Positions 31,718 to 34,916 of a DNA stretch of 39,892 nt are shown one piece after another. Where the stretch lies: NCBI GenBank assembly GCA_029263035.1, contig JAJCYF010000057.1, forward strand, positions 1 through 39,892. The letters run 5' to 3'. A model generated the notes under the pieces. The model was given only the letters and a program-made list of their open reading frames with translations. It was not told where the DNA came from and did no database searches. Positions within the stretch are counted from its first letter, which is position 1. Each line of letters starts with the position of its first letter. Made by a program: the position numbers and the translations under genes. The stretch is from Actinomycetes bacterium. Lineage in GTDB: Bacteria > Actinomycetota > CADDZG01 > JAHWKV01.

Positions 31718-31750
31718 TGCCCCACCGGGGCCTGAAAGGGGACTTTGAGC

Positions 31751-32860
31751 ATGGCAATGCGACGAGAAGATGAAGAGTTCGAAGGCACCACGCTGAACCT
31801 GAGCCCGCTGCTTATGCCGGTGGGCTCGACCGTTACTGCCGACTTCCACCCGCTGGCCGACTTCGCCGGTTTCGGAGAGTACGAGGCCATGGCGGTCGCG
31901 GACACCGGTGAGGACATCGCCTACCTGGCGGACGGACTCGCCGGCGACATTGCCGGCTACCTGGCCGAACGGCCGGAGATTTCGGAGCTCATGCGGTCCG
32001 TGCCCGAACCGGTCGACGTCGCCAAGATCAAGGAGTGGCTGACGGTCACGAGCCAGGGACCACATGACGGTGCGATGTCGGCTTATCTGCGTGAGGCGTC
32101 GCATCTTCCCGGGGGCGGGGCGACCTTTCCCGGGCTGGCCATGGCCCTGCCGCCTCAGATGCTGATCGCATTGGTCGGCTGGGTGGAGGGAAAGATCCTC
32201 GAGGCCCTCGCCGAGGTGAGCGACGAGAGCACGCTGACCGCAGTCGGCGGCGCCTGGATGAATCTGATGATGCTGCAGCTGTGCATCTTCGTCGAGCCGT
32301 ACCTGGAGGAGCCGACGGGGCCGATGAACCACTCGGGCGCCGCCGAGTTTCACCCGTTCGCGGACTTTGCCGGGTTCGGAGTATCGGAGAGCCGGATCCT
32401 AAAGGAGACCGGTCCGCTGCTGGAGCCGGCCGCCGGCGGGGTGATTGCGCTGGCGTACAACTACCTGTTGACCAGGCCGGAGTCGGCGAAGTACTTCGAC
32501 GAGGACGCCCACCTGGCCCAGCGCAAGAAGACGCTCAAAGCCTGGTGGATCCGCAGCACCACCCAGCCGATGGACGGCAAGTTCCACGACTACATGTCGA
32601 AGGTGGCCGACGCCCACGTGCCGGGCGGCGGTACCCATCCGCACGTGGTGATCCCCGCCGACCTGACCATCGCCCTCATGGGCTGGGTGCAGATGCGGGT
32701 GATGACCGCCCTCAACACGATCAGCCTGGACCCCGGCGGCTCGTACGTCTTCGGAACCATGGGCGAGCCGGCCGACACCGCCAACGTGGGCCGGGCCTGG
32801 ATGCGCATGCTGACGCTGCAGCTTGGCATCCTGATGGAGCCCTACCTGTCGAAGAAGTAA
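31751..32860 (+). CDS. Tandem two-domain protoglobin-family protein
   Basis: Internal duplication FHPxADFAGFG...AWMxxxxLQLxIxxEPYL; domain 2 has AYNYL (B-helix Tyr) and YMSKVADAH (proximal His). Confidence 0.78.
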   Translation: MAMRREDEEFEGTTLNLSPLLMPVGSTVTADFHPLADFAGFGEYEAMAVADTGEDIAYLADGLAGDIAGYLAERPEISELMRSVPEPVDVAKIKEWLTVTSQGPHDGAMSAYLREASHLPGGGATFPGLAMALPPQMLIALVGWVEGKILEALAEVSDESTLTAVGGAWMNLMMLQLCIFVEPYLEEPTGPMNHSGAAEFHPFADFAGFGVSESRILKETGPLLEPAAGGVIALAYNYLLTRPESAKYFDEDAHLAQRKKTLKAWWIRSTTQPMDGKFHDYMSKVADAHVPGGGTHPHVVIPADLTIALMGWVQMRVMTALNTISLDPGGSYVFGTMGEPADTANVGRAWMRMLTLQLGILMEPYLSKK

Positions 32861-32932: not shown

Positions 32933-33484
32933 ATGAAGCCCTGGCTGGTAGTCGTGTGCGGACCTTCCGGGGGCGGTAAGTCCTCGATCGCCGGGCGCCT
33001 GTCGGAACGCCTGAACATTCCGTTGATCGGCAAGGACGAGTTGAAAGAGGTGCTGTTCGACAGCCTGGGATGGGGGGACCGGGAGCAGAGCCGGAAGTTG
33101 AGCGATGCCGCCTACGAGCTGATGTTCCACCTCGCCGAAAGGCACCTGGCAACGGGCAGTTCGTGCATCCTGGAGGCGAACTTCCGGCCCGAAATGGCCG
33201 AGAGGCTGGCCGCTCTGGCCGAGACCGGCCCGTTAAACGCGGTGACCGTCCGCTGCTCCGCCGATCCGCAGGTGCTGCGGGAACGCCTGAGGCTCAGGGC
33301 CGAGCAGGGGCTGCGCCACCCCGGCCACCTGGACGCTGAGTTGCTGGCGGAGGTCGAAGGTTTGATCGGCGAGGGGTCGGTGGAGCTCGGGGGACCGCTG
33401 CTGGAGGTGGACACGACCGAACCGTCGAGGGTCAACATCGAAGAAATCGCCAGACGGGTCAGGGATTTGACCGGTCGCACATAA
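32933..33484 (+). CDS. P-loop small-molecule kinase (AAA_33-like)
   Basis: GPSGGGKS Walker A, ILEANF, RxxxR lid, RHPGHLD. Confidence 0.85.
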   Translation: MKPWLVVVCGPSGGGKSSIAGRLSERLNIPLIGKDELKEVLFDSLGWGDREQSRKLSDAAYELMFHLAERHLATGSSCILEANFRPEMAERLAALAETGPLNAVTVRCSADPQVLRERLRLRAEQGLRHPGHLDAELLAEVEGLIGEGSVELGGPLLEVDTTEPSRVNIEEIARRVRDLTGRT

Positions 33485-33585
33485 AAAAGGGACCTTGAAC
33501 CGGGCCAAAGCTACAGCGGTCCGCGGGAGGCGGGGGCGATTATGACCTCACTCCGACCCGGTTCAAGATCCGGTACTTGTTGCCC
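33483..33585 (-). ncRNA. Putative sRNA A: long hairpin with C-rich loop and U6 tail, sigma28-type promoter
   Basis: Stem of about 25 bp whose mismatches become G-U pairs only on the minus strand; loop CCCCCGCCUCCC; TTAT-N15-GCCGATAT promoter at 33617-33591. Confidence 0.65.
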
Positions 33586-33683
33586 CATCTATATCGGCAG
33601 GAAGCCGCCGGCGATAAGCACTATTCGTGAATATCATCACTGAGAGTGGTAGGAAAGGTGGCTCAAGCGGCGAGCGAGCCTGG

Positions 33684-33768
33684 AGTAAACAGAGGCCGGA
33701 CCCGAGTGATCGCTGGGGGGCGGGGGTTGTAGTCCACACTCGGGTCCGGCCATCTGAATTTGTTGCTG
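33684..33768 (-). ncRNA. Putative sRNA B: hairpin with C-rich loop, sigma28-type promoter
   Basis: Perfect 15-bp stem 33694-33708/33737-33751; loop CCCCCGCCCCCC; TTAA-N15-GCCGATAA promoter at 33801-33775. Confidence 0.62.
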
Positions 33769-33832
33769 CTCTACTTATCGGCAGAAACTTAACATCGTTA
33801 ACCTGTCATTTCAAAATTGTTCGGTAACCCGG

Positions 33833-33860
33833 GGAACTTGGGTGCGGGGTTCGTCCGTCA
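33833..33860 (+). promoter_or_regulatory. ECF (SigM-type) promoter for the DUF4349 gene
   Basis: GGAAC-N18-CGTCA. Confidence 0.45.
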
Positions 33861-33917
33861 AATGGCCATTCAATCCATGAGCCTAGAACTATGAGCCCTA
33901 GACCAAGGAGCCGGGAA

Positions 33918-34916
33918 ATGCGGAAACGACTGATCGCAGGGATGGCGTTGCTGAGTCTGCTTATTCTGGCGGCCGCCTGCAGCCGGGGCGACGATAGTGC
34001 ACAGACCGAGCTCTCCGGACCGGTCAGGGGTGAGGCGCCCGCCGAGTCATCGGCAGAGGATGGCAAGCTGGCGGCCCCCGACGCCCCCACTGCCGACACG
34101 GATGTGACTCGAGGCGGCTCCGGTGGGAGCGGCGGCGGGGACGGAGGTGGGAGCGGTGCTTTTGCCGGGACTACCAGCGGAGGATCGGATCAAGCGTCCC
34201 TGCCGGGCATCCCGGAGGTTCCGCCGGCCGGCAGCGGGCGGGTTATCAAGAACATCTCGCTGGAGATCGAAGTCAAAGAGGACCAGTTCCAGCGCCAGTT
34301 CAGCCGGGCAGGATCGCTGGCGGAGCAGTTCGGGGGGTTCGTGACCAACTCGCAGGTGAGCGAGACGGACGGCGAGCTGTCCTCCGGCACGCTGACCGTC
34401 CGGGTTCCCTCGGATCGTTTCGAGGAGGCGGTCGGCCGGCTGAAGGACCTGGGCAAGGTGACTGCCGAGGATCGTAGCGGGCAGGACGTTACCAAGCAGT
34501 TCGTCGACCTGGAGGCCCGGCTCAAGCAGGCCAAAGCGGAGGAGGCCTTCTTCCTGCGCCTGATGGACGAGGCCGAAGGCATCTCCGACATGATCCAGGT
34601 GCAAAGCCACCTCTCCGGCGTCCAGCTACGCATCGAGGAGATCCAGGGACAGCTCAACTTCCTGAGAGATCAGACCGCCCTGTCCACCATCTCGGTCCGG
34701 GTTTATGAGCCGGGCGCCCCGGCGTCGGGCAATCCCCAGCCGCTGACCGAGGCGTGGGAGGGTGCGATCGACGGATTCCAGTCGGTGATCGGCAGCCTGG
34801 TGGTGGCGGTCGGGTGGCTGGCGCCCTTCGGATTGATCGCGCTTGCCGGGTTGTTCGTGCTGAAGCTCCGCAACCGGCCGAAGGTGGAGCCGGCGGCGGA
34901 TCCGCCTGCGGCGTAA
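33918..34916 (+). CDS. DUF4349-domain lipoprotein
   Basis: Lipobox LAAAC, Gly-rich linker, LTVRVP, QDVTKQFVDLEARL, C-terminal TM; AGGAG SD. Confidence 0.88.
   Translation: MRKRLIAGMALLSLLILAAACSRGDDSAQTELSGPVRGEAPAESSAEDGKLAAPDAPTADTDVTRGGSGGSGGGDGGGSGAFAGTTSGGSDQASLPGIPEVPPAGSGRVIKNISLEIEVKEDQFQRQFSRAGSLAEQFGGFVTNSQVSETDGELSSGTLTVRVPSDRFEEAVGRLKDLGKVTAEDRSGQDVTKQFVDLEARLKQAKAEEAFFLRLMDEAEGISDMIQVQSHLSGVQLRIEEIQGQLNFLRDQTALSTISVRVYEPGAPASGNPQPLTEAWEGAIDGFQSVIGSLVVAVGWLAPFGLIALAGLFVLKLRNRPKVEPAADPPAA

Follow-up and report, generated by a model that had tools for sequence, protein, structure and literature searches.

The stretch of DNA analysed here (the window, 39,892 nucleotides (nt) long) is contig JAJCYF010000057.1, positions 1 to 39,892 of the forward strand, of assembly GCA_029263035.1, and comes from an Actinomycetes bacterium (GTDB lineage Bacteria; Actinomycetota; CADDZG01; JAHWKV01) whose genome we refer to as G000 and whose genus as g1. 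The gap between two of its plus-strand genes, which encode an AAA_33 (P-loop kinase-like) protein and a DUF4349 lipoprotein-like protein, is occupied by a pair of minus-strand cassettes, A and B. They are offset by 184 nt, and we regard them with high confidence as conserved RNA genes, each with a sigma-28-type promoter of its own. An earlier note on this DNA had proposed a tandem pair of small RNAs (sRNAs) dependent on sigma-28/WhiG and sharing a C-rich, anti-Shine-Dalgarno loop; the two cassettes, their promoter-like sites, leader spacing, hairpins and loops, and the run of six U residues (U6) behind hairpin A, all lie where that note had placed them.

The full promoter-like sites read TTAACGATGTTAAGTTTCTGCCGATAA in B and TTATCGCCGGCGGCTTCCTGCCGATAT in A (Table 1). 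The leader GCAACAA starts 8 nt (B) or 7 nt (A) past the -10 octamer and is followed by one long hairpin, the 12-nt apical loop of which is CCCCCGCCCCCC in B and CCCCCGCCTCCC in A, both of them variants of the motif CCCCCGCCYCCC. No U-tract follows the hairpin of B in the window. The pattern GCCGATA-N5-12-GCAACAA has two matches in the window, against none in 100 shuffles, and these are also its sole matches in the whole genome (2.51 Mb, 251 contigs); further hairpins with this promoter element and leader, which the earlier note had thought worth seeking, were not found in the genome beyond A and B. The loop 12-mer is by itself not improbable: with one mismatch allowed, it has four matches in the window against 4.8 expected. 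In exact form it has seven copies in the genome, and no comparable hairpins were seen around the five copies outside the cassettes.

On the minus strand hairpin A reaches -46.5 kcal/mol (z -3.4; none of 200 shuffles as good), compared with -38.9 kcal/mol (z -1.3) on the plus strand, a difference of 7.6 kcal/mol that agrees with the preference of stem A for the minus strand claimed earlier. On the same two strands hairpin B reaches -40.8 kcal/mol (z -6.7, minus) and -44.8 kcal/mol (z -5.0, plus); since it folds about equally well both ways, folding alone gives no orientation for B.

Table 1. Features of the RNA locus and its surroundings, in window coordinates; the ends of both RNAs are predicted.
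Feature	Position	Strand	Details
RNA B promoter	33775..33801	minus	-35 TTAA 33801-33798; spacer 15 nt; -10 GCCGATAA 33782-33775
RNA B	33685..33768	minus	leader GCAACAA 33766-33760; hairpin 33756-33690; loop 12-mer 33726-33715
RNA A promoter	33591..33617	minus	-35 TTAT 33617-33614; spacer 15 nt; -10 GCCGATAT 33598-33591
RNA A	33483..33585	minus	leader GCAACAA 33583-33577; hairpin 33571-33490; inner helix GGUC/GACC; loop 12-mer 33536-33525; U6 33488-33483
AAA_33 (P-loop kinase-like) gene	32933..33484	plus	convergent with the RNA pair; Pfam PF13671, E 3.7e-17
DUF4349 lipoprotein-like gene	33891..34916	plus	divergent, upstream of the RNA pair; Pfam PF14257, E 4.5e-57
tRNA	34990-34920	minus	beyond DUF4349; closest minus-strand feature upstream of the RNA pair
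Protoglobin-domain gene	31745-32860	plus	371-aa (amino acid) protein with two matched stretches of PF11563; beside AAA_33 in several relatives

Distribution and Structural Conservation

Cassette A is present in 11 published genomes belonging to four genera of one family of the Actinomycetota, and cassette B in five of the seven genomes of the window's genus (G000 to G004), so that A occurs without B in six of the 11. This bears out the conservation among relatives that the earlier note had made a check of its proposal, the promoter being retained in every copy. A similar A copy from a fifth genus (g10) was found by looking beside DUF4349 in genome G015; as that genome is unpublished, the fifth genus depends on it alone. 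Among 40 relatives, a DNA search recovered the region in each of the six remaining g1 genomes and in both of those from a second genus. A covariance model (R1), built from nine A copies, matched A in 10 genomes, the count being the same for the order (27 genomes) and for the class (113), namely in g1 (7/7, window included), g11 (2/2) and g9 (1/2). The sister family f4 (86 genomes) and families f2 and f3 (seven) gave no match. The totals of 27 (order), 113 (class) and 41 genomes (DNA search) take in unpublished genomes, four of them among the 27. In the window R1 gives 109.7 bits for A and 33.6 bits for B; its scores are 86-112 bits on the RNA strand and no higher than 37 on the opposite one, but R1 was itself derived from the former, which makes this weak evidence of orientation.

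The promoter-plus-leader pattern, searched by itself, added a divergent A copy in G017 (genus g12) and also matched a contig of an unpublished genome (G009:C315). The copies in G014 and G017 were found without the loop and the promoter serving jointly as criterion. A metagenome scan, whose search pattern included the loop core, yielded 23 rows, three of them real copies. Among the 120 matches listed of a scan of genome contigs for the inner helix and loop, at least two carry the promoter; a comparison by eye suggests that these two, in metagenome-assembled genomes, are identical with the elements of G005 and G004. In four genomes (G012, G010, G007 and G011) the neighbour of DUF4349 is another gene, and the RNA was not seen at that place.

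The stem of A is supported by compensatory change. RNAalifold places 20 consensus pairs on the 13 A sequences (alignment A6), six of them with compensatory changes, and 93.8% of the cells of the alignment can pair in this structure, a share that drops to 23-63% on shifting the 3′ partners by one to three columns. The covariation score is 0.212, compared with 0.119 ± 0.017 in shuffles, none of 500 of which scored as high, with the proviso that related sequences can beat shuffles in such a test. Between genera the outer stem is replaced wholly and its pairing kept, the two arms being GGAUCUUGAACC/GGUUCAAGGUCC in G000, CUGGCAAGAACC/GGUUCAGCCAG in G019 and CAAUCGAG/CUCGAUUG in G014. The stem of B, in its five copies, has 13 pairs, two of them with compensatory changes. 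Alignment A5 matches A to B in the leader, in the loop and in the 5′ arm (CCGGnnCGGAGUG), and by this likeness they are paralogues; the earlier note, which had called the stem sequences unrelated, is thus right in part only.

The loop core CCCCGCC[CT]CC is found in all 13 A rows and all five B rows, and on its 3′ side GCGGACC follows in 12 of the 13 A rows (GCAGACC in G014). The leader is less constant: exact GCAACAA stands in 7/13 A rows and 3/5 B rows, next to the variants GCAGCAA, GCAAAAA, GCAACGA, GCAGTAA, GCAGCAG and GTAGCAG. The conservation of promoter, leader and seed set out in the earlier note thus holds for the promoter (19 of 19 copies) and for the loop core, and for the leader in its exact form in part of the rows. 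Its description of the loop as anti-Shine-Dalgarno needs a similar adjustment, as the C-rich core is in every copy and the true anti-Shine-Dalgarno core, CCUCC, in two of the 16 genome copies (A of G000 and B of G004), the rest being pure C and G; the loop is for this reason better termed anti-G-tract.

Two irregular loci were met in the course of the comparison. In G019 the 3′ half of RNA A is repeated twice more after a run of N (L012:1620-1830, contig C221), which is probably an artefact of scaffolding or assembly and not a true tandem array. In G018 a sigma-28-type promoter and a GCAACAA leader (L241; G018:C260:121-145, minus strand) are followed by a different, A-rich sequence without the C-rich loop; this may be another sigma-28-driven transcript with the shared leader.

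Promoter, Sigma Factor and Regulon

Every copy, whether from a published genome (11 A and 5 B, 16 in total) or from a metagenome (three), is preceded by the element TTA[AT]-N15/16-GCCGATA. The A copies have either form of the -35 element and the B copies (G000 to G004) have TTAA; the distance from promoter to leader is fixed in all copies, and the spacer sequence between -35 and -10 varies. The flagellar/WhiG -10 consensus has been given as GCCGATAA (PMC8325347), which is identical to the -10 of B; A has GCCGATAT, and GCCGATA is common to 19 of 19 copies. The published -35 is TAAA or T(A/C)AA, about 15-16 nt from the -10 (PMC2602773; PMC8325347; bioRxiv 10.64898/2026.01.14.699351), a distance with which the spacing of 15-16 nt observed here is consistent.

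A fliA/whiG gene, for which the earlier note had suggested a search, is present: G000 has a single FliA/WhiG sigma gene above the curated cut-off (G000:C241:16976-17653; TIGR02479, 260.3 bits vs 189.6), which adjoins rpsB. Such a gene is above the cut-off in all 27 genomes of the order, and its presence, though necessary, does not discriminate carriers of the RNAs from non-carriers.

Eleven sites in the genome match T[TA]A[AT]-N14-16-GCCGATA[AT], eight beginning with TTAA, two with TTAT and one with TAAT. Besides those of the cassettes, they lie upstream of two genes for secreted CAP-domain proteins, one with a Calx-beta domain, of TadG-like and TadE-like pilus genes, of genes for a MEDS-domain protein and a zinc-ribbon protein, and of one for a protein without Pfam match (C158), as well as inside a long open frame (C238) and before a stretch without open reading frame (ORF) on C136; the contigs besides C136 and C238 are C68, C151, C152, C158, C186 and C236 (loci L169-L174). 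The TadG promoter is common to G000 and G002 only, the gene being operon-internal in the other genomes. Flagellin was found in none of six genomes (G000, 81% complete, and five relatives, 92-97% complete) and FlhA in none of five. Of the motility and development regulon of the earlier note, the sigma-28-type promoter is present in every copy; the motility part is not borne out. WhiG control of type IV pili has been reported in Rubrobacter (PMC8325347), to which the Tad-pilus genes behind sigma-28-type promoters offer a parallel, and from its predicted sites WhiG looks like a regulator of pili and the cell surface in this lineage and not of flagella or spores.

Candidate Partners of the C-rich Loop

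The 11 sigma-28-type promoters are followed within 150 nt by five runs of at least six G, compared with 0.46 expected (Poisson 1e-4), in a test that was made post hoc and in which three of the five runs belong to one RNA. A G6 run lies in the leader of the CAP/Calx-beta gene (L169:1777-1843, G000:C68), about 15-20 nt past the -10 and before a GGAGG ribosome-binding site. Comparison with the orthologous leaders (L180, L181, L182 and L284) finds this run and the sigma-28 promoter in four of five genomes (G000, G002, G006 and G003). In G000, G002 and G006 it extends as GGGGGGCG, which is complementary over 8 nt to CGCCCCCC of the loop; G001 has GGGGCGCG.

The ORF-less stretch on C136 would itself be transcribed as a G-rich RNA of about 170 nt (G000:C136:23125-23295, plus strand; L168:1597-1796 = G000:C136:23096-23295). 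Its promoter is TTAA-N15-GCCGATAA, and it has three to five runs of five to seven G, the first in the loop of a 5′ hairpin, and a 3′ hairpin of 14 bp. A DNA search matched it in three of 19 other genomes of the family; the promoter, the 5′ hairpin, two to four further G-runs and the 3′ hairpin are kept in G002, G004 and G006. A search of ten further genomes with the promoter-plus-G6 pattern gave no extra copy, and no Rfam family matched. The C-rich loops may have a partner, or a sponge, in this RNA. We put forward, as a speculative extension, an RNA-RNA module in which A, B and the C136 RNA are made together by WhiG and titrate one another through loop-loop C:G pairing, one sponging the other. 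If such a module existed, it would impose a threshold or a delay on WhiG targets with G-tracts, such as the mRNA of the CAP-domain secreted protein and the Tad-pilus transcripts.

Upstream of DUF4349, at window positions 33833-33860 on the plus strand, GGAAC is followed 14-18 nt on by CGTC, which resembles a promoter of the extracytoplasmic function sigma type. A AAAGTTCC-like block (reverse complement of GGAACTTT) was seen by eye at the same place upstream of DUF4349 in relatives.

Mode of Action and Rival Explanations

A and B are stand-alone non-coding units in which a conserved structure is combined with a conserved unpaired seed, the combination that characterizes trans-acting sRNAs. We favour, with moderate confidence, the interpretation that they are two paralogous, WhiG-transcribed sRNAs whose C-rich loop pairs in trans with G-rich tracts. 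RNA polymerase with the single FliA/WhiG-type sigma factor would read B (~33768-33685) and A (~33585-33483) independently, each from its own TTA(A/T)-N15-GCCGATA(A/T) promoter, and each RNA would join a short, unpaired leader of sequence GCA(A/G)CAA to a single long hairpin, the apical loop of which exposes CCCCCGCCYCCC. Pairing of this loop with the G-rich tracts of other transcripts, as for 6C and sX13 and without a chaperone, would lower their translation or stability. The two RNAs would in this way tune the WhiG regulon to which they themselves belong, a non-flagellar one with the Tad pilus and secreted CAP-domain proteins, and feedback would be the probable outcome.

Several observations weigh against this interpretation. 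The use of the promoters by WhiG, the start sites and 3′ ends of the transcripts, the action in trans and the targets are all inferred from sequence. The -35 elements TTAA and TTAT are one base off the published forms, and a sigma-70-like scan returned two 9-of-12 matches, one of them within stem A (33566-33539, minus strand). At least four consecutive U after the stem were counted by eye in six of the 13 rows of A6 (G000, G001, G002, G019, L208 and L201), and none of the five B copies has a clear U-tract; a terminator scan returned no site, its 8-nt loop limit shutting out hairpins A and B. All carriers of the RNA are uncultured organisms from within one family, of which they make up only a part. 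The G-run statistic is subject to the qualification made above, and the ranking of 2002 crude start regions by duplex energy (RNA.duplexfold) is non-discriminating in a genome of 65% G+C, the CAP leader coming at the 7th percentile; as the ranking singles out no candidate, the targets should be treated as hypothetical. The constant vicinity of AAA_33 is a further such point, and it leads to a different explanation.

An AAA_33 homologue adjoins the RNA in 12 of 13 loci from four genera and ends within about 70 nt of the RNA 3′ end, and in the window its stop codon shares 2 nt with the U-tract of RNA A. This arrangement would suit a role in cis, in which hairpin A is a bidirectional terminator and the transcript, antisense to the 3′ end or 3′ untranslated region of the convergent AAA_33 gene, affects its processing or stability, the loop being incidental; many A copies are without a U-tract, so that read-through into AAA_33 is plausible, and UUGUUGC, the leader as read on the plus strand, comes directly past the hairpin. 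We nevertheless consider such a role unlikely. It leaves unexplained the conserved loop core with its flanking GCGGACC, as well as copy B, which stands 184 nt farther from AAA_33 with the same promoter, leader and loop. Hairpin A is the worse structure on the AAA_33 strand, where no T-run comes after it, and the synteny may merely reflect collinear genomes, given that DCD, the tRNA, DUF4349 (a homologue of which is at 10 of 13 loci) and protoglobin are kept beside RNA A too.

It has also to be considered that the C-rich loop and the adjacent GCGGACCGCUG form a recognition site for a protein or another ligand that is not an mRNA, the RNA titrating or delivering the protein. Conservation does exceed the needs of pairing, GCGGACC being kept where its partner GGUC is missing, for example in G017, and the energy-based ranking of mRNAs yields no clear target set. 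However, the analysis turned up no protein that might bind the RNA, and no conserved operon joins a gene for one to it; RNA pairing is what has been documented for the C-rich apical loops of 6C and sX13, and candidates for a G-rich partner are at hand within the same regulon; ligand binding thus appears quite improbable to us.

Far less credible is the explanation by ordinary intergenic hairpins or terminators with promoter-like motifs next to them by chance. It can draw on the frequency of the loop 12-mer with one mismatch, which is no rarer than chance, and on the equal folding of B on both strands, but the window has no minus-strand gene upstream that the hairpins could terminate (DUF4349 is on the plus strand), the combination of GCCGATA and leader is absent from the shuffles and from the rest of the genome, and the promoter persists in 19 of 19 copies, in four published genera, while spacer and outer stem diverge. 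A small protein from one of the two mechanical ORFs that overlap the region (58 aa, minus strand; 66 aa, plus strand), both of them open in the window, was rejected as next to inconceivable, as stops or frameshifts interrupt the two of them in G002, the nearest relative, as they are limited in other genomes to short fragments that align over conserved nucleotide blocks, and as the leader has indels of one and two bases among close relatives; the earlier note had likewise seen no ORF that explains the region.

Comparison with Known RNAs

At gathering thresholds, Rfam reports tRNA only in the whole window, and neither 6C nor F6, the actinobacterial RNAs that the earlier note had named as comparisons, nor any other family matches the RNA region. 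The 6C model (RF01066, 75 positions) gave no match in 33300-34000 at E values up to 10; its best score in the genome is 20.8 bits at another locus, where 47 are needed, in a search of limited sensitivity, the Corynebacterium glutamicum control likewise staying below the cut-off. In 6C RNA, two hairpins with C-rich loops lie next to each other. A and B are not 6C, because the score of the model is not attained and each unit has one long hairpin in place of two adjacent ones. The nearest Rfam models include the alphaproteobacterial Atu_C10 (RF02497, 17.1 bits vs 60 needed) and BjrC174 (RF02355, 15.7 vs 45; E about 1-3), with a CCCCC-A-G-CCCCC loop, a likeness in composition only and from another phylum.

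As a model of mechanism, 6C (B11 in Mycobacterium) is the likely one, being an actinobacterial sRNA with unpaired C-rich hairpin loops, which are described as pairing with G-rich ribosome-binding sites and tracts independently of a chaperone (PMC6486639). A and B differ from it in their 12-nt C5-G-C6 loop, their single hairpin and the dedicated sigma-28-type promoter of each unit. For sX13 of Xanthomonas, both the C-rich apical loops and G-rich motifs close to the start sites of the targets are reported to be required, Hfq being dispensable, and a section heading of the same paper names type IV pilus mRNAs among those affected (PMC3771888). That RNA is proteobacterial, has three stem-loops and no sequence relation to A and B, and its abstract mentions no sigma-28 promoter.

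Known sigma-28-dependent sRNAs include UhpU, MotR, FliX and FlgO of Escherichia coli and CjNC1/CjNC4 of Campylobacter jejuni (PMC10578931; PMC4626219). They share with the proposed action of A and B the FliA-type transcription and the feedback on the same regulon, and CjNC1/CjNC4 are, like A and B, a paralogous pair, reported to act free of Hfq in a reporter system (PMC10578931; PMC4626219). These proteobacterial RNAs belong, according to the accounts cited, to flagellar regulons, and those of E. coli are derived from untranslated regions and associated with Hfq, whereas for A and B flagellar genes were not found, the genes stand alone and a C-rich loop would be the seed. In our literature search on WhiG and sRNAs, scr1906 of Streptomyces coelicolor was the sole WhiG-dependent actinobacterial sRNA found. 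Its expression is described as lost in a whiG mutant; no WhiG-type promoter is reported upstream, and an indirect effect was proposed (PMC2602773). By this description it is set apart from A and B, in which the promoter is a conserved feature.

Implications

To judge from the conservation of structure, loop and promoter, A and B are a real, conserved and previously undescribed family of predicted sRNAs, of which the C-rich-loop kind is already known and the link to a WhiG-type promoter is new. Published predictions of WhiG regulons sought promoters only within 200 bp of a start codon (PMC8325347; bioRxiv 10.64898/2026.01.14.699351), a design by which RNA genes could not be found. The main text of the bioRxiv paper makes no mention of sRNA, small RNA or non-coding, nor does the PNAS paper (PMC8325347) mention "small RNA", and in both cases supplementary tables could list intergenic sites.

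The family belongs to a narrow group of uncultured organisms, in which its expression and its targets are predicted. If our interpretation is correct, A and B would be the first small RNAs directly under a WhiG-type promoter in the Actinomycetota, and regulation by C-rich-loop RNAs would extend to a new RNA family. The locus suggests that there may be a post-transcriptional layer inside WhiG regulons, open to search in culturable relatives.

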